Origin: Eledone cirrhosa | Taxonomy: Eukaryota | Direction of reading: 5' to 3' | Length of the DNA stretch: 64,000 nt | Assembly (NCBI GenBank): GCA_964016885.1 | Contig: OZ024755.1 | Coordinates: 17,236,001-17,300,000, forward strand | Shown: positions 33,086-58,654 of the stretch, piece by piece | Layout: the number at the start of each line of letters is the position of its first letter | Numbering within the stretch: position 1 is the stretch's first letter | Program-made: the position numbers and the translations under genes | Notes under the pieces: model-generated | The model's database searches: none | Seen by the model: only the letters and a program-made list of their open reading frames with translations | Told to the model about the DNA's origin: nothing

Positions 33086-33130
<45 letters not shown>

Positions 33131-33674: not shown

Positions 33675-33897
33675 CTTATACTCCAAGATTGAACGAAATT
33701 CTTACAAACTTGTGGAGTTACCCCTAACCGTACCTTGAAACCATCCATGAAACTGGCTTTCTTAACCAAAAACTGGATTACAATAAGCAATTTTTTGCTT
33801 CTCTAACTAAATATATATATATATATAGAATTGGGTATGTATGTATATATGTATAAACATATTTGTATGTATAAATATATATGTGTATATATATACA

Positions 33898-33931
<34 letters not shown>

Positions 33932-33934
<3 letters not shown>

Positions 33935-34342
33935 TATAAAATAACAGGAAGCTGGACTGATGTAGTTCCTTGAAAGGTGTATTATACTATGATCATTTCA
34001 GTGACCGGGTTCAATGTGAATCTGGTGACATCATCGGGTATTCAAAATTTAACAAAGGAATATAATAGACAAAATCCATGGGGCTGAAAAGCAGAGACAG
34101 GAAGGCAGCCAAACTTTTAGCAGCTTGAAGGCGGCCAACCGGGCTAGAAGCTGCTAAATGTTCGGCTGCCCTCCTGTCTCTGTTTTTCAGCCCCATGGAT
34201 TTTGTCTATTATATTCCTTTGTTAAATTTCGAATACCTGATGATGTCACCGGATTCATACTGAACCCGGTCACTGAAATGATCATAGTATAATAAACCTT
34301 TTAAGGAACTACACCAGTCCAGCCTCCTGTTATTTTATAATA
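33932..34342. repeat. Long inverted repeat with about 195-bp arms and a 21-nt loop
   Basis: 33932-34126 is the reverse complement of 34148-34342, with about 13 substitutions by manual comparison. Confidence 0.95.
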
Positions 34343-35393
34343 ATTAACTCCCTACTCGCACTACCAACAACACAAACGAAGACGGGTGAGTTGCATTACG
34401 TTGAGCACTCTCTCTAATATTACATCAAGGTTGACTATACGGAATGACCAGTTCTATCCAGTGGTGAACCAACAAACCTAAATGAATATATATCATCATC
34501 ATCATCATCATCCTCGTTTAACGTCCACTTTCCACGCTAGCATGGGTTAGACGGGAGTTGTCCCACTTGAGGCAAGGTTGGTCGGGTGACCGTGTCTCGC
34601 TCATATAGGACTATCTGGCAGGTTTTCTACGGCTGGATGCCCTTCCTAACACCAACCACATTTACAGTGTGGAACAAGGAACTTTTTACCGTGCTACCTA
34701 CACGGCCACATTACAGCGTGGACTGTGTGTTTTTTCTCGTGACACCTACACGATCTCGATCTCATTTATCTCATTTATTTGGACTATATATATATATATA
34801 ATACATAATTTAACTAATGCGAAAACATCCATTTGGGGGATACAAGCTAGACAAACCAATATTAGAAAGTTTAGCTTGTATATTAGTGACAAATAACTTT
34901 GTCTGAAATATATCTAAACACACACACACAGATACACACACATGCGCACTCACATATATTCATACATACAGACACACATACATATATAGAGAGAGCTTTA
35001 ATTTATCCATTCAGTTTCTAATGGTTTGTTGATATTTCCTCTAGTCTCTTTCTCTCTAAACCTGTCTCCCTCTCTGACTAACACTCTCTCTATCTCTTAT
35101 TATGTCTGTTTGTGTTTATATTGTAAACATCACTGCTTCACTACTTCCTAAATCTCCTCACCCAAAGTCTATATAGAAAATAAATTCTCAATAGTGTTTT
35201 TGGTTCGTTTTTTTATTTTTTTATTAATATTATACCCTGGTCCTCCCTGCCCCCCACCCACACCTTTCTGGTGTTGATAAACAATGTGGAATGATTTTTT
35301 TTTTCTCCTCTGCTGCATCTGAGATATAAATCTAAGTTAATAGTGGCCTATTTCCTGCTAGCTCTCTGCCTCAACCTTCATATCTTCTCTCTG

Positions 35394-35441
<48 letters not shown>

Positions 35442-35490
35442 TGTGTATATACATATTTATTTATATATATTTATTTATAGATATTTGTAT

Positions 35491-35545
<55 letters not shown>

Positions 35546-35570
35546 CATACATTTATTTATAGAAATATGA

Positions 35571-35622
<52 letters not shown>

Positions 35623-35827
35623 TTATTTATAGAAATAGAAATTTATATATATATATGTATATATTTTTGTCTATATACATATACATATATATATATATAT
35701 ATTTTTGTCTATATACATATACATATATATATATATATATATATTTTTGTCTATATACATATACATATATATATATATATATATATTTTTGTCTATATAC
35801 ATATACATATATATATATATATATTTT

Positions 35828-35862
<35 letters not shown>

Positions 35863-36451
35863 CTATATATATATATATATATATATATTTTTGTCTATAT
35901 ACATATATATATATATGTATATATTTTTGTCTATATAAGCATTATCTTTCAAGCTATAATATACATGCTGTATGAGCAGTCTTCTGATCTTGCTCTTCAT
36001 ATTTCCTCATGTGATTCAGCTTTCAAATTATAGTGTTTAAACTATATTATAATATTTACAGATGCTATTCTATCTGGCTGTCACATCAATGCTATGATCT
36101 GTCAACAACGCTCTAAAACCAATATTTAGAATTTGCAGAGATGTAAGACAAAATGTCTTTCTCTCTATCTTTCTGTCTGTCTCTCTCTCCGTCTGTCTCT
36201 CTCTCCCTCGCTCTCCGTCTGTCTCTCTCTCCCTCGCTCTCCGTCTGTCTCTCTCTCCCTCGCTCTCCGTCTGTCTCTCTCTCTCTCTCTCCCTCTCTCT
36301 CTTTCTCCCTCTCTCTCTCCATCTCCCCATCTCCCTCTCTCTCTCCATCTCTCCATCTCCCTCTCTCTCTCCATCTCTCCATCTCCCTCTCTCTCTCTCT
36401 CTCTCCATCTCTCTCCATCTCCCCATCTCCCTCTCTCTCTCCATCTCTCCA

Positions 36452-36487
<36 letters not shown>

Positions 36488-36965
36488 TCCCTCTCTCTCC
36501 CCCTCTCTCTATCTCCCTCTCTCTCTCTCCCTCTCTCTTTCTCCCTCTCTCTCCCTCTCTCTCTCTCCCCCCTCTCTCCCTCTCCCCCCTCTCCCTCTCT
36601 CTCTCTCTCTCTCTCTGTATATATAGGTGTCACAACAAAAAGTACCCAGCACACACTGCAAATGTGGTTGACACCAGGAAGGGCATCCAGCCATAGAAAC
36701 CTAGCCCAAATCAGTTCTGTATGAGCAAAACACGGTCCCACCAACCTGAACTCTTATAAAGGGACAGCCTGTCCTAGTCATGTTAGCGTGGAAGATGGAC
36801 GTTAAACGATGATGATGATGATGATGATATATATATATATATATATATATATATCAACGAAGGAAATGTGGTAATGATGATGATGATATATATATATATA
36901 ACGAAGGAAATGGATGGACCATAACGCACCAAAGTACTCAATACTTAGGGTAGTAGAGTGGGTAA

Positions 36966-37089
36966 TAGGAACGAGTAGGACCCCGACGGCTGAGCTCAAG
37001 CCATTTCGACAGCTAATTCTGGACTCAGATGTCCAGAATTAGCCGTCGAAACGGCTTGAGCTCAGCCGTCGGGGTCCTACTCATTCCTA
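36966..37089. repeat. GC-rich inverted repeat with about 58-bp arms
   Basis: aggaacgagtaggaccccgacggctgagctcaagcc...ctggac / gtccag...ggcttgagctcagccgtcggggtcctactcattcct. Confidence 0.92.
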
Positions 37090-37532
37090 TATATATATAT
37101 ATATATATAAATAAAAGAAAAGTATTAGAAAGGGCATCCAGCTGTAGTAATCTTGCCAAACAAAGGTTTTGTAGGACCCTTCAATTTGTGTCAAAAAAGA
37201 CACATCTTCTCTGCACTCTATATGACCGTATGTAAGCAGGAGGCAGACCCCCTCAGCCTGTCTGGAAGTTCAGTAAGCCAGCTTCAGTACTGACTTTGTC
37301 TATGTAGAGCAGTTCAACTCTTGATAATAGGGAAAGTGGACGTTAAATGACGATGATATATAAAATAGAAGAAAAGGTGGTCACAATTGCAAAAACTTTT
37401 AATCATAGGACCATTTAATTAGGATCTGTCTTAGGACTAAACAACAACAACAATGGTTTTCATTTCTAGAAATGATTATCACCATTATCATTATCTTGAA
37501 GACCATAATCCTCATCATTATTTAGGTGTCAA

Positions 37533-38033
37533 GGGTGGGGGATTGGCAGTATCGGTTGAGGGTCGGACACCATGTTAGGGCGGTGGATTGGCAGTATCGG
37601 TTGAGGGTCGGACGCCATGTTAGGGCGGTGGATTGGCAGTATTGGTAGAGGGTCGGACGCCATGTTAGGGCGGTGGATTGGCAGAATCGGTAGAAGGTCG
37701 GACGCCATGTTAGGGCGGTGGATTGGCAGTATCGGTAGAGGGTCGGACGCCATGTTAGGGCGGTGGATTGGCAGAATCGGTAGAGGGTCGGACGCCATGT
37801 TAGGGCGGTGGATTGGCAGTATCGGTAGAGGGTCGGACGCCATGTTAGGGCGGTGGATTGGCAGTATCAGTAGAGGGTTGGATGCCATGCTTTCCAGCAT
37901 AGTTACGTCCCTTTACAATCTGAGTTCAAATCCCGCCGAGGTTGACTTTGCCTTTCATCATTATGGGGTTGATAAAATAAAGTACCAGTAATGCACTGGG
38001 TAATTGCTGGCCTTGTGCCTAAAGTAGAAACAG
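37533..38033 (+). mobile_element. SINE family B with 8 tandem 45-bp heads
   Basis: 45-bp period from 37533 to about 37890, then a single body; TSD ttatttaggtgtcaa at 37518-37532 and 38034-38048. Confidence 0.88.
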
Positions 38034-38667
38034 TTATTTAGGTGTCAATCAGTTAAGATAAACTGAATCATAAGTTTGATTTTCTGTTCAGATATTGCAT
38101 TATATATATATATATATATTTCTTCATTCCTCTACACGTTAGTCTTATACACGCCACGCATCTCAACGTACACCCACTTACATCTCTCTCTCGGGGTCCT
38201 GATTCTTTTCCTATTATTCATCCTACTACCCGAAGTATCGAGTACTCACCTGGTTCCTTACCCCACTTTCTTTGTTTTATATATATCTCAGTAGGGAAAA
38301 CATGATATTGGTCCATTCCCTTGTATATAGCGTGTATTGTATTAGCAACATAAACTTAATACATAAGAAGCTGTCTGATGATGTAGTGTTACTGGTTGTG
38401 AGATCGAAGCATCACGTAGCCATTAATACATTTGATATATGTAACACAGTTTTATAAATAAAGGAGTCATGACATCTACATCAGACCATCACAATTATAT
38501 TTATTGTACATATATTCTGGCATGCACTAACAAACTAACAAATTATATTTGAAAGGAAACACATGACGTAGAGTATTTAAGTCTAATTGCATCATTATTC
38601 ACTGATTGGTGTGTTGCTTACGCTACACTGATTAGTCAATATTTTTACCATGAGTATATATATACAC

Positions 38668-38708
<41 letters not shown>

Positions 38709-38789
38709 AAAACAGGGAGAAAGAGATGATTATGAGGAAGAAAAATATATTTTTTTCCTTTTTTGTGCCTCCTCTCCACATTTTATTAT

Positions 38790-38838
<49 letters not shown>

Positions 38839-38948
38839 TGTATCCAGATCATTCCTGCTTTCCTTTGCAGGTGGTATTGACTCTTTTCTTCAGGAAACAA
38901 GGGCAATAAAGTAGATTTTTATTAAAAGGTGTCTGTTTGTAGATGTTT

Positions 38949-39514
38949 GTGTGAATGAATATGTATGCTTGTGTCTATGTGTGAATGAATGTGTATGCTT
39001 GTGTCTATGTGTGAATGAATATGTATGCTTGTGTCTATGTGTGAATAAATGTGTATGCTTGTGTCTATGTGGGAATGAATGTTTATGCTTGTGTCTATGT
39101 GTGAATGAATGTGTATGCTTGTGTCTATGTGTGAATGAATGTGTATGCTTGTGTCTATGTGTGAATGAATGTGTATGCTTGTGTCTATGTGTGAATGAAT
39201 GTGTATGCTTGTGTCTATGTGTGAATGAATGTGTATGCTTGTGTCTATGTGTGAATGAATGTGTATGCTTGTGTCTATGTGTGAATGAATATGTATGCTT
39301 GTGTCTATGTGTGAATGAATGTGTATGCTTGTGTCTATGTGTGAATGAATGTGTATGCTTGTGTCTATGTGTGAATGAATGTGTATGCTTGTGTCTATGT
39401 GTGAATGAATATGTATGCTTGTGTCTATGTGTGAATGAATGTGTATGCTTGTGTCTATGTGTGAATGAATGTGTATGCTTGTGTCTATGTGTGAATGAAT
39501 GTGTATGCTTGTGT
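38949..39514. repeat. 30-bp minisatellite, about 19 copies
   Basis: unit gtgtgaatgaatgtgtatgcttgtgtctat. Confidence 0.95.
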
Positions 39515-39719
39515 ATTCATACAGAAATATATTTGTATACATTTTACTTACAGTATTTCTGACTGTTCATCTGTTTATTGCAGTCATTTGTACACACAAT
39601 TGCACACGCACACAAGCGTAATACTTACTCTCTCACACACACACGTGTAATAGATACACTCATGCACACAAGTGTAATAGATACACACTCACACACACAG
39701 TGTAATACATACACACACA

Positions 39720-40690
39720 CACAAGCGTAATACACACAGACAACCATAATACATACATACACACACATACAAGCATAATACATTCACACATGCACATATA
39801 CAAGTGAAATACATACACATAAGCGTAATACATACATACACACACATACAAGCATAATACATACACACATGCACATATACAAGTGAAATACATACACATA
39901 AGCGTAATACATACATACACACACATACAAGCATAATACATACACACATGTACATATACAAGTGAAATACATACACATAAGCGTAATACATACATACACA
40001 CACATACAAGCATAATACATACACACATACACATATACAAGTGAAATACATACACATAAGCGTAATACATATACACACACATACAAGCATAATACATATA
40101 CAAGTGAAATACATACACATAAGCGTAATACATATACACACACATACAAGCATAATACATACACACATGCACATATACAAGTGAAATACATACACATAAG
40201 CGTAATACATATACACACACATACAAGCATAATACATACACACATGTACATATACAAGTGAAATACATACACATAAGCGTAATACATATACACACACATA
40301 CAAGCATAATACATTCACACATACACATATACAAGTGAAATACATACACATAAGCGTAATACATACATACACACACATACAAGCATAATACATACACACA
40401 TACACATATACAAGTGAAATACACACACATAAGCGTAATACATATACACACACATACAAGCATAATACATTCACACATGTACATATACAAGTGAAATACA
40501 TACACATAAGCGTAATACATATACACACACATACAAGCATAATACATACACACATACACATATACAAGTGAAATACATACACATAAGCGTAATACATATA
40601 CACACACATACAAGCATAATATGTACACACATACACATATACAAATGAAATACATACACACACACACATACGCATAATACATATACGCAC
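39720..40690. repeat. CA-rich compound minisatellite, about 75-80-bp units
   Basis: recurrent caagcataatac / caagtgaaatac / taagcgtaatac blocks. Confidence 0.9.
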
Positions 40691-41045
40691 ACATTAGTAG
40701 CAAATGTCCTTGAAAGAGACTGAAGCATGTTTCCACTTGTACAACTATTGGCTAATTAAGACATCATTTATTCCCTTTATATCCAGATTACCTGCATACC
40801 TACCTGTCTACCAGAGTTAATTACCACATACATTAAAACTCTTCCATTTACTCTTCAAACTACCTGTATATATACACACACATATACATACATATATATA
40901 TATACATACATACAAACATACATATATATGTACATACATATATACATACATACACAGAATATGTACACATATACATATATATATATACATACATACATAT
41001 ATATGTACATATACACATTCATACATACACAGAATATATACACAT

Positions 41046-41084
<39 letters not shown>

Positions 41085-41149
41085 CATATATATATGTACC
41101 TACATATATACATACATACACAGAATATATACACATATACATATATATA

Positions 41150-42841
41150 TCATCATCATCACCGTTTTACGTCCGTTCTTCCACGCTAGCATGGGTTAGA
41201 CGGGTTGTCCTGTTGTGGGCAGTGTCTGGTCGGCTGACCATGCCTTGCTCATACAGGAACTGATCTGGCTTGATTTCTACAGCTGGATGCCCTTCCTAAC
41301 ACCAACCTCATTTACAGTGAGTGCTGGGTGCTTTTTCGTGGCGCCTACACGTCCACTTTACAGTGTGGGCTGGGTGCTTTTTTGCCGTGGCACCTCCACG
41401 ACCACCTTGCGGTGGGGGGGGGGGGCATATTGTTTATATGCTTCAGCATGTACCCATGGGAGGTCGGGTACCCTGTATTACTGCGTGACGCCAGAAGTCA
41501 CGGTCGTGTGTCATTGACTTTGAGAGGTGTAGTTGGGTAAGGTCGGCTCTTATCACCTCATCCCAAGTCATCTTGGGTCTCCCCACTCCGCGGTTTCCAT
41601 CAACTTCTAGTGCTCTGCACCTTTTTATGCAGCTGTCATCCTTCATACGCATCACATGTCCATACCAGCGTAACCGCCTCTCCTGCACGCAGCATTTGAT
41701 TCCTCTTATGCTCAGTCTCTCTCTCAATTCATTTATGCTTTGTCGTTCACGTATATTACTGTTACACATCCATCGGAGCATGCAGGCTTCGTTTCTCTCT
41801 AATCTACGTAAGTCTTCCACCTTCAGCGCCCAGGTCTCACTACCATGCAACATCGCTGTTCGGATACACGCATCATACAGTCTGCCTTTCATTCTGAGGG
41901 AGAAGCCTTTTGCAGCTAGCAGTGGTAGTAGTTCCCTAAACTTCTTCCATCCCGTTCTTACCCTAGTTATTGTACTTTCTGAGCACCCACCTCCGTTGCT
42001 AATTCGGTCACCTAGGTAGCAGAAGCTGTCTACTGTTTCTACAGGGCCCTCCCAGAGATTGGTGGTACTTGTTTCCTGTGGCTGTTTGCTTGCTGTTTCA
42101 GCACAGCTGCTGCATGTGAATCCTACATTCTTAATTAAGCTTCCTGAGATCCCGCTACATCTCTTGTGTACCCATTGTTTGCATTTGGGGCAAAGAATGG
42201 AGTTCCTACCTACACCTTTCCTACATACTGAGCAAGGCCATTTCCCTGAGGGGATCTGGGTTCTGTTTTCTCGTCTACTTATAAGGACCTTAGTCTTTGT
42301 CATGTTGACTTTGAGGCCCTTTCTCTCTAGTCCCTGCTTCCAGGTTTGGAATTTATTCTCTAGTTCTACCATAGATTCAGCTATGAGTGCGAGGTCATCA
42401 GCATACAGGAGTTCCCATGGGCATCCGGTCTTAAACTCCTCCGTTATTGCCTGCAGGACTATGATGAACAGGAGAGGGCTAAGAACAGAGCCCTGGTGGA
42501 CCCCAACCTGTACGCTAAATTCCTCGCTATACTCATTGCCAATCCTAACTTTGCTGACTGCTCCCCTATACATGGCTTGTACCGCTTTCACAAGCCATTC
42601 ATCTACTCCTAGTTTTCTAAGAGCCCACCAGATTACTGCACGTGGAACTCTGTCAAAGGCTTTCTCAAGGTCGACAAATGCCAAGTAGAGTGGCTTACTT
42701 TTAGCTAGGTACTTTTCCTGTAATTGCCTCACAAGGAAGAGCGCATCAGTGGTGCCTTTCCCTGGAACAAACCCAAATTGCATCTCGTCTATATTCACCC
42801 GGTCCCTAATCAGCTGTGCTATAACTCTTTCTGTTACTTTC

Positions 42842-42843
<2 letters not shown>
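41150..42843 (-). mobile_element. 5'-truncated RTE-clade LINE: RT, PHD-like finger, C-terminal region and 3' tail ending in (GAT)n
   Basis: Open ORF to stop at 41443 with QFGF, FVDLEKAFD, GVHQGSVLSP, LLYADD, YLG, GSETW and RRLRWYGHV motifs; starts abruptly at a (TA)n run. Confidence 0.92.
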
Positions 42844-42880
<37 letters not shown>

Positions 42881-43141
42881 CATACATATATATATGTACA
42901 TACATATATACATACATACACAGAATATATACATATATACATACATAGAAACTATTGCATTCACCCTTCAAACTACCTGTATACATACACACACACATCA
43001 TCAGCATCATTTTACATCCGCTTTTCCCTGCTTGCAAGGGTTGGACGAGTCCTATTCAGCACAGCATCTCTTCACTTGTCACGGTCCTTCGTCATCTCCT
43101 CGGTGAGTTTCTGAGGTCTGCTCTCACTATATATATATACA

Positions 43142-43718
43142 TGGTGGCTGCCAAGTCATTTTTGAGTACGGCCACTACTTTATATCCATGTAGGAGAACC
43201 CCTACCGATGCGCTGAAGGAGTGTGACTCTTTAGTCCAGCCAGCGACTTGAAAACTCTGGTACAAACACTACACTTGTGACAATTATTGACACATAGTGC
43301 TGGGCCCATGCTACCATGTAACGACAAGTGCAGAGAGATCTCCAGATATAAAGCAATGCCTGTGCCATGAAGCTTTTTATAGTGAGCAAAGGCACTGCAC
43401 AAAGCCAGTCCCACTCTCTTAACCAAGATGATATTTACCAAAAAGAAGTACAAGTCAACATCATTGGATACCATCAGGGTTTTCCTTCTCCTAGAATCTG
43501 CCTTGACAAAGGCTAAGGGGTCATCTCTCCCGGTGATTTTGGATGGCCATTGACTCTTAAGAGCTCCTTTGCCGTTTGACAGGTATTGTTTTTAGTCCTG
43601 CAGGATGTCCAAAGTCACCCTCCTCACCAAGAAACCTTGGTGGGGTTGCCAGTTTAGTCGCCAACGACCCGACCATGAGACAGGTTGTACTGGGATACAT
43701 GTTACCAGTAGCACCAAC
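43142..43718 (-). mobile_element. Non-autonomous RTE-like derivative (5'UTR-like part joined to a C2H2-coding 3' end)
   Basis: Minus strand encodes HKCSVCTRVFKSLAGLKSH near the 3' end; no RT; flanked by (TA)n; related fragment at about 12320-12457. Confidence 0.5.
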
Positions 43719-45593
43719 ATACATATATATATATATATATATACATTCATACATATATATATATACATACATACATATATATACATACATCTATCTCTCT
43801 TCCTCTTTTTTCTGTTCCTCTCTGTTGCACACATGCACAATCCCCACCCCTCTCATTCACACACTCTCATACTCCCTCTTTCACCCTCTCCTACTTTTTC
43901 ACTCTCTCTTTCTCCCTTCCTCTCTCATACATTCTACAATTATACAGATTCCCTTTATGGCTGTACCAACATCCCTTTCTTATTTGCATATTCCGGTATG
44001 TCGAGCTTTATGTAATAAAAGGATAATTACCATAATAATTGTTTCTACTTTTGGCACAAGGCCAGCAATTACCCAGTACATTACTGGTACTTTATTTTAT
44101 CGACCCCGTAAGGATGAAAGGCAAAGTTAACCTCGGCGGGATTTGAAGTCAGATCATAAAGGGCCGTAACTCTATGCTGCAAAGTATGGCGTCCAGCCCT
44201 CTACTGATACTGCCAATCCACCACCCTATAGATATATAATATAGTTATAATGATAAATAATGGTTTCTGATTTAGGCACAAGGCCAGAAAATCTGGGGGG
44301 GGGGGGAGGTGGGGGGAGCTAATTAAATCGACCCCAGTATGTTACTGATATTTTATTTTTTTGGCCCCGTAAGGGTGAAAGGCAAAGCTACCCAAGGAGA
44401 AATTCAAAATCAGAATGTAAAGGACTGTAACTTTGTGACATGAAACATAGCGTCTGACGCTCTACCAGTTCTGCCAATCCATCACCCTTAATAATAATTG
44501 TCTCTACTTTAGGCACAAGGCCAGCAATTACCCAGTGCATTACTGGTACTTTAATAATAATGATAGGCATGATGATGATGATGTCATGATGATGATGATG
44601 TCATGATGATGGTCATGATGATGATGTCATGATGAAGATGATGATCATGATGATGATGTCATGATGAAGATGATGATCATGATGATGATGTCATGATGAT
44701 GATGATGTCATGATGATGTCATGATGATGATGTCGTGATGATGATGTCATGATGATGATGATGTCATGATGATGATGATGTCATGATGATGATGGTCATG
44801 ATGATGATGGTCATGATGATAATGGTCATGATGATGATGGTCATGATGATAGTCATGATGATGATGGTTATAATGTTGATAGTTATGATGATGATGATGA
44901 TAGTAATAACAACAATGTCCTCTGGTGGCTGAATACACAATCTCTCTTCCCTGATGGAAATCCTCTTAATTAAAGATCAGATGATATATTTGTCTTCCTC
45001 CTTTACTTACACCTTCACTCCTCCTTACACCTTCCCCCCTCCCCCTCCCCCCTTTCCCCTACACCCACACCCCTTACACCTTCACCCCTGCCTTACACCA
45101 TCATTCCTTCTTACACCTTCACCCCCTACACCCCCATACACTCCACCTCCTTACACCTTCACCCCCCACACACACCATCACTCCCTCCTTACACCATCAC
45201 TCCCTCCTTACACCATCACTCCCCCCCTACACCATCACTCCCTCCTTACACCATCACTCCCCCCCTACACCATCACTCCCTCCTTACACCATCACTCCCT
45301 CCTTACACCATCACTCCCTCCTTACACCATCACCCCTCATACACCCCACCCCCTTACACCTTCACCTCCCCTACACCATCACTCCCCCCTACACCATCAC
45401 TCCCTCGTTACACCATCACTCCCTCCTACACCATCACTCCCTCCTTACACCATCACTCCCCCCCTCCACACCATCACTACCCCCTACGCCATCACTCCCC
45501 CCCTACACCATCACCCCCCTACATCACCCCCTCCCTACAATTACTGTCTTGTTTTATTCATATTCTTGTTGCTATTGTGACTATTATTGTTAC

Positions 45594-45625
<32 letters not shown>

Positions 45626-48251
45626 GTGGTTGCACACATCAATATATACATGTGTGTGTGTGTGTATATATATATATATGTATATATATACACATACATA
45701 TATATACACATACATATATATATACATACATATATATAAATATATACATATATGTATTTAACACATACATATATATATATACACATACACACACACACAC
45801 ATATATATTTATATATACAAACACACACACATATATATATATACACTTGCATGAATAGAAACACACACTCATACACACACTCACATAGATATATATCCTC
45901 TACAAATGTGTGATCACCTAGCGTTGGTTTTGTTAAGCAATTGGGAAGACCACATGACTGTGTGAGTATTGGGCATTTTTGTTGTTGTTAGGACTGTTGT
46001 TGTTTGTTATTGTTGCTATTTAGCCCTAGGCTTGTCCTGGTCGAGCAGACAAACTTATGATCAAAGGCATTCCAGCTATGACCACCCTGTCTTTTATTTC
46101 AGGCACAGTATAGCTAGGAATACATTAACTAGCATATCCTTCATTGTTTTAGACATTAAGATATTATTTGTGGGAAATGTTGTTGCTATTTCTAACAGGT
46201 TCAACAGCCACACTGAAGCTCCTTTACCAGCCAGTCTCATTTTGTTTTTTTAGGGTTGTTAAGATGGCAGAAATGACTGAGATTTGATATACTATTATAA
46301 CTAGCTTTGTCTTTCAATGTTATTGGCTCAAATCATACTAGGATCATGTTGTCGGGGCCGATAAACTATTTTCATTATCATCATTATTAACATCATGGCA
46401 GGGGGTTGGCAGTATCAGTAGAGCATTAGACAATATGCTTTGCAGCATGGAGTTACGTCCTTTTACATTTTGAGTTCAAATCCTGCCGAGGTTAACTTTG
46501 ACTTTCATCCTTACAGAGTTGATTAAATAAAGTACCACTAATGCACTGGGGTCAATTTAATCAATTTTCCACCCTCCCAAAATCAGAAATCATTACTCTT
46601 TGGGAAGATCAGCCATGACTGCCTCTCACAACTCCTTCCAAGCGGTTATGATCCTACATTACCATATCATGGTCTCTTACTTCATACATTAGTTTCACCA
46701 AGGACAAGATACGAAATAGGACCTTCATAGTTGCTGGATGGATGAACATGGAGAAAGACACCCTCCTACGAGTTGTTCTTAATTCTGTAAAGAAAGCCAC
46801 CCTGGAAAAGGACATTCCCCTCTAATTTATATTCCACAGATAAGGTTGAATAAGGCTCTACAAGCTAAGTTAAGCCTTGTGATGTTAAATTGCCTGAAAC
46901 TGCCCCAGATTTTATGATTCAAGGCTATTTATCTCAGTATTTATCTTAGTATTTATCTAAATCATAATTTATGTTTTGTCCCAAACATCAGCTTAATAAT
47001 AAAAAATGTTAGTTATATTGCTAAACCTCTTAAAATTCATGATAATTTAAAAAGTAATTTAAAAAAGCACAGGCAATGCTCTTTCTTTATAAATATAAAA
47101 ATATAATTTTGGTTGCTAAATGAATTAAGAATTTGATGCCATCAAAGAAAATCGATTTTATTTTTACTAGGATTTATGTCTATTATTTATTACACACCAG
47201 GTATGATATTTTCTCTTTTATTAGGTGAGGGAGGAAAGAAAAGGTTTGCTAGATTTCTGTTGACTTTCAAAAGAAACAAAAAGCAATGGCAGTACTTGAG
47301 TTATTTAGAATGAAAATTTATGCAGAGGAAATTTTAACTCTTTTGTTATTGCCCTGCCTAAAACCTCTCTGATTCTATGACAAGAATTCTCTTTTTAACC
47401 CATTCATTACCATATTTCTGGAAAGGCAATCAACAAGTTCCCAAATCTCATTCATTTACTGAGTGGGCTGGAACTCATCAAATTGGAAGAAGGAAACAAT
47501 GTTTCCATTGTTTTTTTCCATTGCTGATATTATCTTAGCAGAAAGAGCAATGTAAAATAGTGTTTTACTCAAGGACATAATGCATCACCTGCCCAGTTAT
47601 CGAATTTTCAATCTCATGATTGCAAATCAATTCTCTAAACACAAAGCTGCATGGCTCATAATTTTTAAAATAATCAAAAGTTTTGAGAGATTTGCTAATA
47701 TAATAGACTTTCTCATCATTAACTTATGGAAAGGGTTTCATATGAAATTATAATTTTCTACTTTTGGCACAAGGCCAGCAATTACCCAGTGTATTACTGG
47801 TACTTTATTTTATCAACCCCGTAAGGATGAAAGGCAAAGTTAACCTCGGCGGGATCAGAACTCAGAATGGCAAGGGCCGTAACTCTATGCATCAAAGCAT
47901 GGCGTATGACCTTCTACCGATACTGCCAACCCACCACCCTTCATATGAAATTATAATGGAAGGTTTTTAGATGGATATAACAGTTTTGTATAACACCAGG
48001 GACAGTTTCAGGTAATTTGCTATGAAAAGGGCTAAAATGTTCATATTTAAATTAAAACCTCCCCTATCCTAATTTTATCTAAAAGATTTTAAAGTTATAT
48101 TCCAAACATCAAGTTAAAATGAACAAAACTTAATTATTTTACTAAATCCCTCAAAAGATTTGATTATTTTAAAAATGAAATGATACTCAAAAGTAATATA
48201 TTTTATTGGAAATATGGTCAGAAAAGGGTTAAACATTATAAAACTATTTAA

Positions 48252-48723
48252 TCCTTTAGCATTTAAACCAGCCATATCTGGCCAGAATTCTCTCATCTCT
48301 TTCTGTTCAAAGCGGCTGTAACTGGCTGCTCATACTGATATTAAGGTATTGTTCTCAAAATAAATAATATCAAAATCTCGTAGATTTGATATTATGTGAG
48401 ATAAAGCCTTTACCACAAAAATACACTAGTATATATAGAGCAGGCATGTGAAACATGCGGTCTGCAGACTGCATGTGTCTCTTTACAGGCACACCTACAG
48501 CCCATTTCTACAGCCCGTTTCTACAGCACGAGCATGTTTTATCTTCGTAATATAAAATTAAAATATTAGGTGTAATGTGTGCAATTAGTTGTCATGTGTA
48601 GCCCTCAGACAACACATATGTGAGCCATGTGGCCCTCAGACAACACATATGTGAGCCATGTGGCCCATCGGGGGACCCTCAGTTTGACATGCCTGATATA
48701 GAGTAATATAAATGCTAAAGAGT
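48252..48723. mobile_element. piggyBac-like MITE interrupted by a hAT MITE
   Basis: Homologous to 10939-11146 on both sides of a 255-bp insert. Confidence 0.7.
48441..48695. mobile_element. hAT-superfamily MITE
   Basis: TIRs caggcatgtgaaac and gtttgacatgcctg; exact 8-bp TSD atatagag. Confidence 0.85.
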
Positions 48724-51700
48724 TAATGTAGTACCTCATAATTTTATGTATGAAACTTTTAAGTTACATTCCAAACATCATCATAAAATCAACAAAAATT
48801 TATTATTTTACTAAATCCTTCAAAAAGACGATTATTTTCCAAATTAAATGAAATACAAAAGTAATATATTTTATTAGAAATATGGTCACAAAAGGGTTAA
48901 ATATGATAAAATTATTTAAACCAATACCTCTACCATTTTTGTTATTTTCACTTCTTTAGTTGTTATTTTATTGTTTTTCAATATCCTAAGATCAATACAA
49001 TAAATAGAATAAATACCATTCAAATACTCGGATCAATATAATCTATAATCAATTATACCCTCCCACAAAATTAGTGGCCTTGTATCAATGTTAGAATTTA
49101 TTATTGTTTTTGTTGTTGGTATTTTATTGGTATTGCTGTTTGTTTTTCATACTATTGTTATTGTAGTTGTTGTGCATATTAGTATTATTGTTGTTGTTTT
49201 TGTTACTGTTGCTGTTGTTTTTGTTACTGTAGCCACTGCTCTTATTGTTATTGTTGTTTTTGTTATTGCAGATGTTGCTCTCATTGGTGTTGTTGTTATT
49301 GATGTTGTTTTTGTTACTGTTTTTGTAGCTGTGGCGTTTATCAGAGTTGGTTTTGCTGTTGTTTTTGTTGCTTTCATTTATATTGTTGCTGTTTTTGTTA
49401 TTATTGTTACTATTGTTGTTATTGTTGGAAGATGTGAGCAGGATGTTATATTCTGACCTATCTCGACTCAGAGTATGATTTCCCATCCAACCCATTCCAC
49501 CATAGAAAGAAAACATAAAATAATGATGATGATGATGATTGTTGCTTTTATTGATGTTGATGTTTAAATCCCAGATGGGGCAGTGAGTTAGCAACAGAGT
49601 CATTAGAGTTTCAGACAAATGCTTAGAAGAATTTGTTTCAGCTCCTTACTTTCTGAGTTCAAATCCTGCCAAGGTCAACTTTACTTTTCGACCTTCCAAA
49701 GTCAATAAAATAAAATACCAATAAAATAAAATACTGGTATCAGCTTTACGTGGAGTGACTCCCTGATCTCTAAGTTTTGCAATCTATTGAGTAACATTAC
49801 TCCAAAGACCCTTCGGAGGAGCCCCCTTTTGGCTGCTTTTATTTGTGACCATATTCTTTCAGTCACTACTCAAGATTCGTCACCATAGGTAAGGGTTGTT
49901 ATGATCACCAAATTGAAGTTATAAGCAAGTTTGGCTTTTTTACTTACCTCCCTTCTGATGATCAGGTGCTGAAGCTGGTATATTCTTACACCAGATCCAG
50001 CAATAATTGTATTTGATTCAGCCTCCTGCCTTCCCCCCATAATTTCTAGTCTTGTACGAAAATTAGAAACCAATATAAGTTAGTACCAGGTGAGTCCACA
50101 TCAAATGCAGCGATGATGTAAGACCTCCCAGCCATGGCCATCATATCTGTTTATGTCAAACACAATATATCTACAACTATACTATCCAATGTATCCATTC
50201 TTTTTAAAGGAACTAAAGTAGGATTTTAGTGAGATTAAGTTACTATTTCCTGCTGGTCAATAAACCATGTAAGTTCTCCAACATTGCTTATATTATTTTC
50301 CAAATAATTTGGAAACAATAGACAGTATCTTGCATTAGAAATATAGTAACAAAAGTGATAATTTATTTGGGTATTTTTTAAAAATGCTATTTTGCTTTGG
50401 TTATAAATAAATGTGTTTTGCTATTATGATAGCTGGAAGGAATATAATTTGTGTGAACTAAATACAAAACCCAGTTTTATTTCTTATTATTTTTATTCAA
50501 TACCCTGAGGACAGAGGTAAAGATGACAATTCCTTATTACCACTTCAGATCAGACATACTTAATATAATTTTCATTGTTCTTCCTTTTGTTTCAGATGTT
50601 TGTCTTAGTAGTAGAAATATGAATAGCCTTGAGCTCTTGGTCTGTGTTGATTGCATATTCCATAGTATGGTATCTTTGTCATTCTCTGACATCTTTTCTA
50701 GTGTATGCTTATACAATCTCATTTCAATTGGTATCTTGTGCTGACACAACTTCCTCTGCTAGTATTTAAAAGCCCCAATTCTATTATGCTAGTAGATGTA
50801 TCATTCTTTCTTGGGTTTAGCCATTCTTATATAACTCTAATTGCATCCAGGTGTGGTTCTGGGGTTAAGAAGTGAGTTCTAAACCAAAGGCTCATCAAGC
50901 CACTGCTTATCCTCAGTTTCTTTGGTGTTAAGCAACTGAGAGTACAAGACTTTCCCTGGATAGAATGTTGGTCTATCACAAGATTAACTTCCCACTTAGT
51001 ACTGGTACTCACTCTCAGCTGAGTGTACTGGAACAACGTGAAATAAAGTGTTTTGCTCAAGAACACAATGTTGCAGCCTGTCCAAAAATTAAACTGATGG
51101 CATTACAATCCTACATCAAGTGTTCTAATTTTTAAGCCATGCCCCATCACTTAAGAAGCCCACTTTGTAACTATGTTTTCAACTTCAATCCTACTCTGCA
51201 GAACATTAGACATGTTCTACCATAGCCTCAACTCAACATAAGTTTTGTAAATGAAATTTGGTAGATGGAACCTCTGTGGAAGTCTGTCAGAATGATCATT
51301 CCTGATTTGTGGCAAATTTAAGCCATCACCTAGTTTAATACCACTGCCTTGCACTTGGCTGCCTTTAGCAGAATTAATCCAATTGTAAGCATTCTGATCA
51401 TATTCTCCAGCTGAGAATAACTTCTTCCTTCCTTCCACCAGTCTTGGAGGTCATGAAAAAGGTCATAGCCAACATCCTTTTTCCTAATTAAAACCCCTCC
51501 CACAAGAAATGAAACATTACTTGTATATTGTCCTCCTTAGGGAGGATTACAACTTATTCAATGTTCTCATTTATAATTTGCTTTACCAAATTCTTTTATT
51601 TATTTCCTATTGTATTATATGAATACATACCCCTCTCTATCTTTCCCCTCTCTTTCTTCCTCTCCCCTCTCTATCTTCCTCTCCTCTCTATCTTCCCTCC

Positions 51701-52535
51701 TCTCCCCTCTCTCTCTTCCCCCCTCTCTTTCTTCCTCTCCCCTCTCGCTCCCTCTCGTTTCTTCAGAAATAGTTTAAATATAATCTATGATATTTAAATA
51801 TTATTCTGTACATTATTCAAATATTATTCTATATTATTCCCTATATATTGTTTTGATCTTCAGCTATTATTCGGTATTATTCAAATATTATTGGTCTTTT
51901 GAAGCCTGATACAAAACAAAATTGTAAACAGAGCAGTCTGTTGAATAATTAATGTGTCTAATTGAAAAATAACTGAATGAAAATCAAATAAAAAAAATCA
52001 ATAAACTGCAACATTAAACAAAATAAAAATAAGGCTTTTAGGTAATTATTTTTTTGGTTATGGAAATGTTTTACTATAGACATTTTATGCCCATGATGGC
52101 TTAAATTAAGCAAGCCTTACGTGATTCTACATCAACTTTTTAAAGTTAGAATGGAAAAGCTCGATAGTAATGGAAATGTGTAATAATGCTTTTTAGGCGA
52201 ATTTAGTCAGGATTGTTTTTACACCCTGCAATTTTTCGTTTTTTTTTTAAATCTTTTTTTTTTATGTTAACCGCAAAGATGCAAATTGAGAATTATATTT
52301 GTTCTGTAACTAATGAAGTTCATGAGTTTGCATAAGTTAATAAGCCATAAGGGAGAAGTGGACTCTAATATTACTATGCTGGTCTTTTGTCTGAGAAAGA
52401 AAACCATCTCATCTATACCCTCATCTCCCCATGGCTTAGAAACTCATATGAATTCACAAACATCAATGTAGAATTTTTACTGATGTAGACCAACATTAAT
52501 TACCTTAGAATTTGTTGTTTCTTTTACATCATTAA

Positions 52536-52779
52536 CCCTTATGGTATCAAACTGTCTTTGGTTTTGTGATACACACCAATTTGTTTTAATACATTTACAT
52601 ATAAATTTAAATCTTTCATCTAAATTTTATGTAAGAAAATTTTAAGTTATGTTTCAAACACCAGCTTTACAATGACAGTTATTTACTAAATCACACAAAA
52701 TAATTGATTATTTTAAAAATCAATTGAAAATTATAAGCAGTGTTTTTATTTTTTAATTAGAAATATGGTAATGAAAGGG
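52536..52779. mobile_element. Second piggyBac-like MITE family; copies at about 30150-30384, 59910-60143 and inverted at 61200-61460
   Basis: TTAA|CCCTT ... gaaatatggtaatgaAAGGG|TTAA. Confidence 0.65.
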
Positions 52780-53141
52780 TTAACAAGATCCCCAGTACAA
52801 GAATTCTCAAATATTCCTGCAAATTATGTTAATTTTAATTTTTCAAATGTTTCTTTAGTCTCCACTAAAACAACAATACCAAGTACCCACACCTCTTTAT
52901 TGTTTCAATGATTTATGAAATAATGTAAAGATTTTGATTAAAGAATATTGATTGAAAGAAAGTTAGAGAGATAGTGAGTGTATGTATATATATACCACTT
53001 ACCTCATGTACTACATCAAGCCTCATTAGCAAGATGTTCTTGAAAAGTAGAAATTAACATAATGACACCATATTAAAAATTGAAGTTTCTATGCTAATTT
53101 TACAAATTTTCAAAATGATATTTATTATATTATCGCTCTAT

Positions 53142-53525
53142 CTAGGGTGGGTAAAATTCCCAAGATCCATGGAATAGTTCTCTCCAGCAGTTTCTGTCCT
53201 TCTTCATCGTCGCCATGTTCTGCATCTCCAAGAGACCAGTGTCTGTCCTTAGGGCATCAACATATGTCAACCTCAGTCTCCCTCTTCTAGTGTGTCCACG
53301 TAGGGGCTCCCACAGGAGCACTGAGTGCAGTGTCAACTCTGAATATTGGTGAGCATGTCCAGCTAACTTCAGTCTCCTCTCTGTTATATTCAAGCTAATT
53401 TTTTGGAGGCTCCCGTACAGCTCTGAGTCCTTCATTCTCAGTGTATACTGATTAATGTTCATAGCGATCCTCAGCATTCTCGTGTAGCACCCATCCACCA
53501 TCTGAGTGCGTTTCTTGGTCAGTTG
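53142..53525 (-). mobile_element. RTE/RTEX-like LINE ORF2 3' fragment
   Basis: DGCYTRMLR, ERRLKLAGH, LLWEP..G..RRGR...TYVD and DRNCWR match the RTE C-terminal pattern. Confidence 0.8.
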
Positions 53526-53989
53526 CTTAGTATATTAAAGATACTATAAACATTTGAATTAACAAACCAACTGTTTTTAAAGATATTTTCTGCTAAATCA
53601 TTTCAGGATATTAAAAATTAAATGAAAAATATGAAATCATAATTTTTAAAATCCAGTTGTCTTGAATGAATCTTAAAGTTAATCTCATTTGGATTATAAT
53701 GGTATAGATTGGTATAGATTGCTGATATCTATGACATCTGTCAACACACAGGCACACATGCGCACACCCACCCACAAACACATGCACACTCACTCACACC
53801 AATACATACATTCCCTCTCTCACATACGCAAGAATGTAAACTTTCTATATCACTAACTTTCTCAATATTGGTTTATGGTTATTGAATGTCATAGTTTCAT
53901 TCCAATAATAATTAATCACTTGAATCCATTGTTTCAAGAGTTTGCCTCCAGATATTACTTATTACTTGCCAAATTTGTTTGCTTCATAT

Positions 53990-54282
53990 AGAGTGAAAGG
54001 TTTTTATTTGTCTTGTATACAGTGAAGGGGTTTTTTTGTTTAGTATACAGTGAAGGATTTTTTTGCCTAGTATTCAGTGAAGGGTTTTTTTTTTGCTTAG
54101 TATTCAGTGAAGGGTTCTTTTTGCCTAGTATTCAGTGAAGGATCTTTTTGCCTAGTATTCAGTGAAGGATCTTTTTGCCCAGTATTCAGTGAAGGGTTCT
54201 TTTTGCCTAGTATACATTGAAGGATCTTTTTGCCTAGTATTCAGTGGCAGGTTTCTTTTTTTGCTTAGTATACAGTGATGGA
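53990..54282. repeat. About 29-bp minisatellite
   Basis: ttttgcctagtattcagtgaagg repeated about 9 times. Confidence 0.88.
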
Positions 54283-55127
54283 GTTTTTAATTATTTTGTG
54301 AAGTATAGAGCTTGATGTTGATAACAGAATTTAAATCATTGATTCCTTCTCCAATATTCCAGGAACCTGATATTGTAATAACTGCTATAAAACTAGATAT
54401 AATATTTTAATTATCATCCAGAGTGGAGGGTGTACCTAGAGCTCAGAAACATAATTCATATGAGTATTCAAAAACAATAACTATGAACTAGAAATAGGCT
54501 AAATAGTTGTTACCTTTACCAAGCAGCCAATAGGGAAAACAGCAATTTAAATAGTGAAAGAAAGCAAAACCAAAACTGTGGACATAGTTTAAAATTATAC
54601 AGGTAATTACCACAATGGTGAAGTATTTCATTAGCAAAAAACTTTCAGAAAATACAGGGACTCACACACACATACACACATACACACACCACAAACCACA
54701 CACCACACACCCACACATGCATATACACACACACACACACTACAAACCACACACCACACACACACACACACTAACATAGACAACACAATACACACATGCT
54801 ACACACACATACGTGCTACACAAACACATACCTACACAGTGCACACACACTACACGCATACACACAACACATTTCACACATAGATACACACACACACACA
54901 CACACACATTACACAATCACTCACATACACCTACACACAAACACTCACATACACCTATACACACACACAATACACACATATATACAGACACACACACTAG
55001 AGGTAGTGATGGTGGTTCTAATGATTGTGTTGTTGTTGTTAATGTCCCCCTCGTATTTAGCTCTGTTAAAGCTGGTGTTTTGGTAATTATAGTAATGTTG
55101 GATGATTATGACAATTATAATGCTGCT

Positions 55128-55810
55128 TGTGATGATGATGATGGTGGTGGTGGTGGTGATGGTAATGGTGATGGTGGTGATGATGGTGATGGTGGTGGTG
55201 ATGATGATGGCGGTGGTGATGGTGATGGTGGTGATGATGGCGATGATGATGATGGTGATAGTGGTGATAGTGGTGATGATGATGGTGATGGTGGTGATGA
55301 TGGTAATGGTGGTGGTGGTCGTTGTGATGATGGTAATGGTGATGATGGAGGCTGTTGTGGTGGTTGTGATGCTGTTGGTAGTAACTATGAAGATGATGAT
55401 GATGGTGGTGGGGATGATGATGATGATGGTGGTGGTGGGGATGATGATGATGATGGTGGGGATGATGATGATGATGATGATTCCATCAACTATGAAGAGG
55501 AAGATAGAGGATGGAGTGAAGAAATAATGGTGTATAAGATGGTAGTGGTGTTGGTGATGGTGGTGATAGTGATGGTGGTTATGATGGTGTTGGTGATGAT
55601 GGTGATGGTAATAGTAATGGTGTTGGCGATGGTGGTATAGGATGGTAGTGGTGTTGGTGATGGTGGTGATAGTGATGGTGGTTATGATGGTGTTGGTGAT
55701 GATGGTGATGGTCGTTATGATGGTGTTGGTGATGGTGGTGATGGTAATAGTAATGGTGTTGGCGATGGTGGTATAGGATGGTAGTGGTGTTGGTGATGGT
55801 GGTGGAGGGT
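55128..55810. repeat. (GAT/GGT)n trinucleotide low-complexity tract; similar at 31590-31960, 44569-44903, 45000-45540 and 49100-49425
   Basis: direct inspection. Confidence 0.93.
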
Positions 55811-56001
55811 AGTAGTGATGGAGGATGAGTGAACTTGTATAAACCAATTTTATAATTTTTAATAGAAACACTAAAAGTTGTCTGACTTCAATTATATAAT
55901 CAAATCTGATGATTTTTAAAAAAAAACAGACATGAAAATTGTTCAGATAAAACAAAAAATAGATTTTATAAAAAGATTGCTTGCTCTTGAACTGAATTAT
56001 C

Positions 56002-56055
<54 letters not shown>

Positions 56056-56289
56056 TGTGTGTTCACACTGTAAGAATCATTAAGAAATATTCACCCAAAT
56101 TTATTTTAAATCTTCATAATTGTATGGTGCAGTCAAAAATCTGAGGGTTTTTTGTGTGTATGTGATAATTATGAAGTAGCAGCAGTTAAGTTAATATCAA
56201 TGGTAGATGAATGTTGTGTCCTGTGTTTAGAGTAAGTGAAATTGAGACACCAATGGTTATTACTTCATCACTCTATCTACCCTCCACAG

Positions 56290-58122
56290 CCAACCAAGCG
56301 GTGTGACTCCACTCAAACATCAGAACCATCTGCCCGCTATCCTGGTAGAAGGTCTCGGCTTAGCTCTGGCTCAGAAGACGATTCTGATACCGATCCATTT
56401 GCAGCAAAATCTCCTTCTGCGAATGGTGCTTCCTTCAGTGATAACCAACAACAACGACCACCGTCTTCATCGAGAGATAATGACCACTCAAAAAGGAGGT
56501 ATGGTTTAGATACATTCAGCCCACATTCATCTTTAAAGTCTAGAAATGTGCTGCTTGAATCCGAAAGTGAGGAATCTGGGTATGGGGAAACAAACACAAT
56601 GCAGGCATCTAGTTTTGATATTACTCTAGATAATGATGCCGATTTTGATGGCTTTCATTCCACCAGAACTCTCTACAGTAGCCACTCTGATGATACTTTC
56701 TCACTTATGAGCAATCATATTAATGAATCTACTGATGGCTGGATGAGAAGTACAAGTACTCAGACACATTGTAATGCCAGAACACAGACTCCAAAAAGTT
56801 TTGAATTTAATGCATCTTTTGCTCATTCAGTTAACTCTTTAAGCAGCAGTCTACCCATTAATGATGTCCAAACTCAGACAAGACTCTTACATAACCGATC
56901 ATTGCAAACCTCAAATACTTCTTTACATTCTATGTCAGCACAAACAAAATCTTTGAGTGGCTCAAAAAGTAATTTGTTAAAAAACATACTCCTTGAAGTA
57001 AAAAGCTTAAAAACAGACCGAGGAATTGATCAAAATTCCACAATGTCTGACAGTGTTTATTCACCTTCTTCAACTCTAAATGGTACCATGCTCAAGGAAA
57101 TCCTTAAAGATGTCCGTGTTATTAAGCAATCAGATTCTACCTGTGATGTGAGTACCCAAACATATGCTGAGCAAGGAACCCAAACTTCTTTTAGTGAAGA
57201 TAACACTAGCCATTGTCATAGACATGAAAAACTTAAAGATATTCTGAATGATGTAAAACTTGTGTCAAACAACAATGTTTTATTCCCAGAACCTAACCAG
57301 GAGGCTGGAGTATCAACTGGTCCACAGATTCAATTGAATCCTGCTGCACAACATCCTAGAAATCCATCACAGATTTTAGAAACAAATGGCAACCAAAGTA
57401 ATTTGAAATTTCTTCCTCCACAATATGGAAATAACACTAATTTTGTGCCATCTAAACCAGTTTATTTGATTCCTCAGAGACCACAAACAACCCCAAATCA
57501 AAGGCCAGTATTTCCGAGGAAGAAGGTTACCCAACAAGATTTAAACAATGTCAGTCAACGTATCGAAAGACTGCGCAACTATCAACTTCCTGAACCACAC
57601 CTACGAAGATTCATTCCTAACCAACAGAATGGTACAGTTTTAAGGTCTCCTAATACACATCATCCAACAGCATCTGTTAATAGAAATATAGTTTCCGAAC
57701 CAATGGCTGTATCTGGTGGCCCTTTAAACAACTTGCCTCAGTTCATTTCAGCTCAGTCTCAGATACCAGGAATCCCCACAAATCCTCCACATAATTTCTC
57801 CAATCCTTATGTATCATCTGCTAACCTGCCACCTCATCAATTTCTACCAAACCAAAATGAACGAGTTTCCTATACACAACGTGGCATTCCTCAAGAACAC
57901 CCTAGAAGGCCATATAGACATTCATATGATGATTTAGACCTTGCAGCTCACCCCCAAAGACACCACCGTGAATATTCTCCTCGAAGACGTGATCATCGAT
58001 CTCTTGTAATGGACAGATATCATCTTGATGAGGTTATTGAGAAAGTGACAAGAAAATCTCGACAACTTAAAAAAATTGCTGAAAAAATGAAGCAAACACT
58101 TAAGGATGAAATACTGAAATAA
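56290..58122 (+). CDS. Large terminal exon (610 aa plus stop): disordered S/T/P/N/Q-rich tail with TQT motifs and a C-terminal coiled coil
   Basis: Non-repetitive 1.8 kb ORF; ctctatctaccctccacag acceptor gives phase 0; TAA at 58120-58122; AATAAA at 58118, 58370 and 58412. Link to the upstream spectrin exons is inferred. Confidence 0.85.
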   Translation, partial: PTKRCDSTQTSEPSARYPGRRSRLSSGSEDDSDTDPFAAKSPSANGASFSDNQQQRPPSSSRDNDHSKRRYGLDTFSPHSSLKSRNVLLESESEESGYGETNTMQASSFDITLDNDADFDGFHSTRTLYSSHSDDTFSLMSNHINESTDGWMRSTSTQTHCNARTQTPKSFEFNASFAHSVNSLSSSLPINDVQTQTRLLHNRSLQTSNTSLHSMSAQTKSLSGSKSNLLKNILLEVKSLKTDRGIDQNSTMSDSVYSPSSTLNGTMLKEILKDVRVIKQSDSTCDVSTQTYAEQGTQTSFSEDNTSHCHRHEKLKDILNDVKLVSNNNVLFPEPNQEAGVSTGPQIQLNPAAQHPRNPSQILETNGNQSNLKFLPPQYGNNTNFVPSKPVYLIPQRPQTTPNQRPVFPRKKVTQQDLNNVSQRIERLRNYQLPEPHLRRFIPNQQNGTVLRSPNTHHPTASVNRNIVSEPMAVSGGPLNNLPQFISAQSQIPGIPTNPPHNFSNPYVSSANLPPHQFLPNQNERVSYTQRGIPQEHPRRPYRHSYDDLDLAAHPQRHHREYSPRRRDHRSLVMDRYHLDEVIEKVTRKSRQLKKIAEKMKQTLKDEILK

Positions 58123-58332: not shown

Positions 58333-58654
58333 ACATATATTTCTCTTAACATTGATATTTTTTATAGTAAATAAACATGTTTTTATTTCTAGGATAAAAT
58401 TACATAAAAATAATAAAGAAAAAGAAAGTAGCATTGCAAAAGACTATAAATGAGAGGAACACGAGGGAAAGGGTGAGGGTTATTAAGCAATGAAAGAAAG
58501 GGGGAAAAGGAGAGGGTGACAGACTCTACACCTAAGTCAAAGTGGTGTTTTGGCTGCATAAATTCTTTATTATATTTATGTAATTTTATCCTAGAAATGT
58601 TTATTTACCATAAAAAAATTTAAATCTTTCTCTTAATATCAGAGAAATATATGT
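58333..58654. repeat. Inverted repeat (about 90-bp imperfect arms) downstream of the large terminal exon
   Basis: tttctaggataaaattacataaa...aataaagaa versus ttctttatt...tttatgtaattttatcctagaaa. Confidence 0.8.

Follow-up and report, generated by a model that had tools for sequence, protein, structure and literature searches.

The window, a 64,000-nucleotide stretch of Eledone cirrhosa contig OZ024755.1 (positions 17,236,001 to 17,300,000), carries on its forward strand eleven phase-0 exons of a nesprin-1-type spectrin-repeat rod (1251..20624) and, far downstream, a large tail exon (56290..58122). Three homologous proteins serve as references for the rod. P0002 (Sinanodonta; 35% over 479 columns) and P0003 (Pinctada) are gene models recovered by word searches in which rod and tail are combined, and P0055 is the Babylonia nesprin-1-like isoform X5. 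Nine of the eleven rod exons were located by tblastn and are collinear with residues 1276-2026 of P0002 and 971-1740 of P0055; the remaining two, 13169-13324 and 18834-19004, come from a splice-site scan. Pfam matches to Spectrin or Spectrin_SYNE1 were obtained for two of the six window exon pieces scanned. PF25034 and PF00435 are present on P0002, P0003 and P0055, for which the source names are nesprin-1-like, and dystrophin repeats were the only matches of P0055 in the PDB. The last rod exon (20322-20624) ends in the donor ACG/gtaggt, and this phase-0 donor at 20624 agrees in phase with the acceptor of the tail exon 35.7 kb away. That acceptor, a pyrimidine tract followed by CAG (56260..56289, forward strand, phase 0), has its CAG in the same place in two of three further tail loci, L001 and L002, and lacks it in the third, L003; the three loci were found by a metagenome scan among 364 candidate stretches.

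Between them, the last rod exon and the tail exon enclose a putative 35.7-kb intron (20625..56289, forward strand), which is repeat-rich and in which no rod exon was detected. Just upstream of the tail exon, 54000-54280 and 54650-56040 hold a minisatellite of ~30-nt units followed by (CA)n, (GAT/GGT)n and (ATT)n. A repeat at about 58760-59010, belonging to a family of ~200-400 nt, has copies near 37600-38000, 44100-44500, 46400-46600 and 47800-47950; copies are many and dispersed on both strands, so that the family is likely a SINE. About five 45-nt tandem units derived from the start of this type of repeat lie at about 37575-37800. Frames with the motif LYADDL on the reverse strand of the intron (about 42250-42700) presumably represent a LINE reverse transcriptase, probably an insertion.

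The reading frame around the tail exon is open over 628 codons (56236-58122, forward strand), and 610 residues follow the CAG at 56287-56289 before the TAA at 58120-58122. The encoded tail is predicted to be disordered, is devoid of a transmembrane segment and has 23 homologues. Two AATAAA hexamers in A/T-rich DNA (58370..58417, at 58370 and 58412) are candidate poly(A) signals. Past the stop codon, L001 (about 3940-4325) and L002 (about 1853-2105) share two non-coding blocks of 47 and 23 nt, possible 3' UTR elements. We rejected two other exon structures. The tail is not an internal exon: its strongest internal donor-like site scores 4.8, yet conservation extends to the reading frame, the final helix and the stop codon. 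A 58-nt intron starting at the donor-like AGA/GTAAGT at 56232 scores 3.0.

The first-pass annotation, made from the letters alone, had reported six TQT cores and two variants in a Ser/Thr-rich region of this exon. Translation of 56290-58119 (forward strand, standard code) reproduces them exactly, with TQT at 56311, 56758, 56782, 56872, 57154 and 57178, LQT at 56902 and AQT at 56938, and adds a VQT at 56866 that precedes and overlaps the fourth TQT core. Tail residues 1-327 consist of 19.6% Ser and 9.8% Thr. They contain six TQT against a mean of 0.147 in 100,000 residue shuffles, none of which got to six, and nine QT against 1.56 expected, a count likewise never attained in 100,000 shuffles; the homologous spectrin rods, by comparison, have merely three TQT across 9,968 residues. 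Since the QT sites are encoded by differing codons, a DNA repeat is ruled out, and together with the shuffles this excludes an origin of the motifs by chance or by DNA repetition. The sites, all on the forward strand, are grouped unevenly: S1 (RCDSTQTS, Q9) at 56299..56322; the tandem S2 and S3 (RSTSTQTH and CNARTQTP, Q158 and Q166) at 56746..56793; S4, S5 and S6 (NDVQTQTR, HNRSLQTS and HSMSAQTK, Q196, Q206 and Q218) at 56860..56949; and the tandem S7 and S8 (CDVSTQTY and AEQGTQTS, Q290 and Q298) at 57142..57189.

Homologues of the tail occur in bivalves and gastropods at ~30% identity. A profile built on three tails matched 23 proteins among 1.84 billion, and species names were found for three of the 19 clusters looked up, all of them molluscs (Crassostrea, Elysia and Candidula). 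Sixteen of the 23 matches, the window, P0002 and P0003 make up the tail alignment (n=19); P0019 and P0021-P0026, seven short or chimeric sequences, and redundant cluster members were dropped. S1 is preserved as xCxxTQTx in every one of the 11 sequences extending to the acceptor; the Pinctada model enters the exon downstream of it. QT is present in 18/18 and 17/18 sequences at S2 and S3, and in 17/19 at each of S7 and S8. At S4, S5 and S6 it is found in 16/18, 13/19 and 16/19, counted by alignment span because row P0020 stops before these sites; P0018 is without S5-S8. The distance from Q to Q is 8 in 18/18 sequences for S2/S3 and in 17/17 for S7/S8, and 12 in 13/13 for S5/S6. Only these three spacings are fixed: the intervals from S1 to S8 are about 150, 8, 13-40, 8-11, 12, 68-77 and 8. 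None of the homologues has TQT at S5 or S6, where the residue before Q is L/M/V/I and A/N/S, respectively, and mostly not S/T; S2 varies among SQ, TQ and CQ.

Identity to the window, with its two closest homologues excluded, averages 0.28 over residues 1-327, but reaches 0.83 for Q and 0.81 for T at the 16 anchor positions of the eight sites, as against 0.12 and 0.19 at 34 other Q and 31 other T. Around the anchors it drops to 0.15-0.31 at offsets -6 to -2 and +2 to +4. Thus, the anchors are conserved selectively relative to their flanks, the comparison on which the first-pass annotation had staked its proposal. The associated p-value of 7e-9 overstates independence, because alignment programs tend to place one QT over another and the homologues share ancestry. 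Mismatches between L001 and L002 number 316 at third codon positions versus 104 and 64 at the other two, and the third-position excess among L001-L003 points to selection on the protein. The eight-motif array is real, old and under selection, and it resides in what is likely an alternative last exon of a nesprin-1-type gene in molluscs.

The LC8 homodimer has two grooves, and by taking up a TQT-anchored strand in each it dimerises disordered client proteins (bioRxiv 10.1101/2025.07.16.665182). Fit to the groove was scored over residues -5 to +2 with position rules hand-coded from PMC6607443 rather than with LC8Pred. By these rules, six of the eight 8-mers pass in the window, and the passes across homologues from S1 to S8 are 6/8, 9/18, 2/18, 12/17, 9/12, 14/17, 3/17 and 16/17; S1 has Arg at -3 in 9/11 sequences. 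TQT itself is weakly predictive, binding having been observed for 16/53 phage-display and 7/19 matrix-predicted peptides (PMC6607443), and in KANK1 individually weak sites can bind LC8 together (bioRxiv 10.1101/2025.07.16.665182). The S4-S5-S6 spacing, mostly 10-12, would leave room for neighbouring LC8 dimers. In S2/S3 and S7/S8, the Q-to-Q distance of 8 corresponds to a zero linker between 8-residue footprints. The shortest linkers in the compared arrays are 1 residue in human ASCIZ (PMC10046861) and 3-4 residues in KANK1 (bioRxiv 10.1101/2025.07.16.665182); a zero linker is shorter than these, making full LC8 occupancy doubtful. The tail probably works like a multivalent LC8 client.

In an AlphaFold2 model based on a 17-sequence alignment, 449 of the 610 tail residues have pLDDT <50. 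All eight motifs fall within such segments, a prediction that agrees with the disordered region assumed earlier. Five helices are predicted on the same strand. H1 (aa 225-243) and H2 (aa 266-281), amphipathic helices of like pattern, are encoded at 56962..57132, and H3 (aa 307-326) at 57208..57267. H4 (aa 415-429; 57532..57576) is conserved and has high pLDDT, and H5 (aa 569-609; 57994..58116) is a conserved C-terminal amphipathic helix. H1 residues L230, L234, V237 and K241 are invariant across 17 sequences, and the helices match the anchors in degree of conservation, as does the acidic block described below. The pattern L-x-x-I-L-x-[ED]-V-[KR]-x-[LIV] is common to the three predicted helices at 56962-57267 and constitutes an internal repeat between the motif clusters. 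When the C-terminal helix (aa 560-610) was modelled as a homodimer of two copies, the score was 0.02 against a mark of 0.32, which carries no weight either way. The peak 19-residue hydropathy is 0.36 in the window and at most 0.81 across the 19 tails, and no membrane segment was found in either. Pfam returned no family for 17 tail sequences, just four single weak matches; the tail profile matched PDB entries only at E 2.6 and 6.5, the level expected by chance; and searches of the ESM Atlas gave no usable match.

Upstream of the first methionine of the exon (M104, 56599) lies an acidic block, ESESEESGYGET (56557..56592, forward strand), which is a candidate beta-TrCP-type phosphodegron. The pattern [DE]SGYG[DE]T is found in 20/22 sequences and is among the best-conserved stretches of the tail exon. 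The beta-TrCP consensus is DpSGXX(X)pS, and ESG is present in the MYC substrate degron, but outside the named consensus variants (PMC10317156). E-S-G-Y-G-E/D-T agrees with the DSGXXXS spacing, as a consensus match only.

Both S1 and this ESGYGET block are conserved upstream of the first Met, which argues for an upstream coding exon and for translation through the acceptor. Homologous records point to the rod as that upstream part. In P0002 and P0020, the rod is joined straight into S1 at the phase-0 junction of the window, and in P0003 it is joined to the tail exon downstream of S1; P0002 and P0003 are gene predictions that conflict on the acceptor, and P0020 is a fragment cut inside exons, with neither start nor stop. 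The first-pass suggestion that the exon may be spliced to a spectrin rod is supported by these homologous records. Before the junction, P0055 and P0002 are collinear (55.7% over 1,749 residues); past it, P0055 has ~3,150 further residues, nearly all rod. Because P0055 continues into rod from the same junction that is used for the tail, the tail is likely an alternative last exon. On these records, the simplest reading is that the tail and the further rod are two mutually exclusive continuations. The continuing rod exons would then lie beyond 64 kb in this species: of 26 pieces taken from the further rod of Babylonia, none matched the window at E<0.01, versus 19 of the 27 control pieces. CH and KASH domains were not found in P0002, P0003 and P0055, all of which begin inside the rod. 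The tail isoform is without KASH, having no Pfam match and a hydropathy of at most 0.81 in 19 tails; as KASH is unseen in P0055 as well, its loss is assumed from the family. At the end of P0055, residues about 4870-4904 are of low complexity and look frameshifted, the true end, with any KASH, being beyond the record. Of the KASH-less giant with an LC8 ladder that had been proposed, the selective conservation of the anchors, their predicted disorder and the rod-tail joins of homologous records are supported, and the end of a separate gene gives way to a probable alternative last exon, in view of P0055.

Could the tail be mainly the product of a nested gene or transcript, with a promoter in the nesprin intron and a start at M104, yielding a soluble LC8 scaffold of ~430-510 aa, and the rod joins be annotation errors or minor products? 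In oyster, RefSeq lists such a protein separately (XP_022330732.1, LOC111129000; 430 aa), starting at the Met equivalent to M104, and ORFs of 350-680 aa that stand alone make up the majority of tail matches. The 35.7-kb gap between rod and tail in the window points the same way, as does L003, which over positions 1-390 is unrelated to L001 and L002 exactly from the acceptor upstream (local alignment p 0.22 and 0.08, respectively, L001 and L002 being mutually alike), has no AG there and has an in-frame stop 11 codons upstream, as expected of a spliced non-coding first exon. The L003 sequence may, however, be genomic, its acceptor having shifted. A start at M104 would also leave S1 (11/11) and ESGYGET (20/22) upstream of the coding region, where they are nevertheless conserved, and the window, L001 and L002 all retain the CAG in phase 0. 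Moreover, the joins in P0002 and P0020 fall at the very point where P0055 continues. We therefore regard a predominantly tail-only product as unlikely, although tail-only and rod-joined transcripts may coexist.

Less probable still is the view of the first-pass annotation, that in this species the gene, or else a KASH-less paralogue, ends constitutively with the tail exon. The absence of any detected continuing rod exon between 20.6 and 64 kb fits it, and so does the failure to recover a full-length KASH form in a search limited to proteins of up to 5,000 residues, a size that full-length giant forms exceed. Yet P0055 is collinear with P0002 to the junction and then proceeds into more rod, the window stops 5.9 kb past the stop codon with the preceding intron already 35.7 kb long, and the distal rod is possibly too divergent for detection. 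It would surprise us equally if the motifs had been kept for a reason other than LC8, either as an ATM/ATR-type S/T-Q cluster or as a QT-x6-QT unit for another partner. The variation of S2 among SQ, TQ and CQ and the invariant 8-residue spacing, which differs from the compared LC8 arrays, would suit this explanation. An S/T-Q kinase site, however, has no need for Thr after Gln, and in the tail this Thr (0.81) is as conserved as the Gln (0.83); S5 and S6, in addition, mostly lack S/T before Q.

The reading that we favour, and consider probable, is that of an alternative last exon encoding a disordered tail with eight QT motifs, through which LC8 is predicted to zip two tails together and so to dimerise the giant rod. 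Splicing across 35.7 kb, which we infer for this species, would put the tail in place of the distal rod and, presumably, of the KASH anchor. The eight conserved QT motifs are predicted binders of several LC8 dimers; about five to eight of these would ladder two parallel tails, so dimerising the rod. The helices between the clusters may pair once LC8 aligns the two chains, and each zero-linker pair may hold one LC8 dimer in either of two registers. The site of action would be cytoplasmic rather than at the nuclear envelope. If the N-terminal calponin-homology domains are kept, dimerisation would yield a long, bivalent cross-linker of actin, similar to what has been proposed for isoform B of Drosophila Msp300 at Z-discs (PMC8616381). 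Phosphorylation of the ESGYGET block would trigger turnover of the protein, which is the weakest step of the proposal. A bolder version, which we hold to be rather doubtful, is that a splice switch predating the separation of cephalopods, bivalves and gastropods converts a nesprin-1 nuclear tether into an LC8-clamped, degron-controlled dimeric cross-linker, and that QT-x6-QT represents an undescribed way for LC8 to stack or to switch register.

If the favoured reading holds, it would link nesprins to the LC8 hub, and a KASH-less nesprin would have gained a purpose-built, deeply conserved C-terminal module instead of merely losing its anchor. This bears on a question of the nesprin field, namely, the function of KASH-less isoforms and the means by which they are kept in position. 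The invariant zero linkers of S2/S3 and S7/S8 would furthermore be a natural probe of the shortest spacing that permits LC8 dimers to stack. Beyond the motifs noted in the first-pass annotation, the present analysis adds the invariant 8-residue pairs, the interleaved helices and the acidic ESGYGET block.

The first-pass annotation did not recognise the architecture as a described one. KASH-less nesprins are well established in fly and mammals (PMC8616381, PMC11230431, PMC3388047), and LC8 ladders are known as well; it is their combination that we did not find in print. A literature search over titles and abstract starts, with most subscription papers outside its reach, produced no report of a nesprin with an LC8 ladder. 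Among the matches listed, nesprin and LC8 co-occurred in one ATMIN paper, in a single mention, and one review named both Msp300 and either dynein light chain or cut up; none was relevant for mollusc nesprin isoforms. Queries for DYNLL1 with SYNE1 gave an unrelated proteome only, those for octopus or cephalopod nesprin unrelated papers only, and LC8 with spectrin repeat and TQT nothing. LC8 is unmentioned in a paper on nesprin isoforms (PMC11230431), and no mention of SYNE1, SYNE2 or nesprin was found in four of the six supplements of PMC6607443.

As in the KASH-less isoforms of nesprin-1 and Msp300 described in the available portions of that literature (Msp300-B, which is CH+KASH-, Msp300-PE and the mammalian alternative 3' ends), a giant gene would here be shortened by an alternative end. 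Those isoforms end in an 8-aa retained-intron peptide, by loss of the KASH exon or, in Msp300-PE, in ~100-aa repeats and a membrane helix, whereas the tail described here is a 610-aa soluble exon product with conserved motifs of its own. With ASCIZ/ATMIN and Nup159 the tail shares TQT and variant anchors that lie in disorder and are clustered with long and short linkers (PMC10046861). It differs from them in that no sequence kinship was found, a spectrin rod is attached, helices lie between the clusters and two pairs have zero linkers. A further parallel comes from KANK1, likewise a scaffold of the cytoskeleton, whose linker L2 has individually weak motifs that engage LC8 cooperatively, stiffening a disordered region (bioRxiv 10.1101/2025.07.16.665182); for the nesprin tail, binding is predicted. 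KANK1 has at least 15 sites, evenly separated by linkers of 3-4 residues and internal to the protein, whereas the nesprin tail has eight unevenly spaced sites in a terminal and apparently optional exon.
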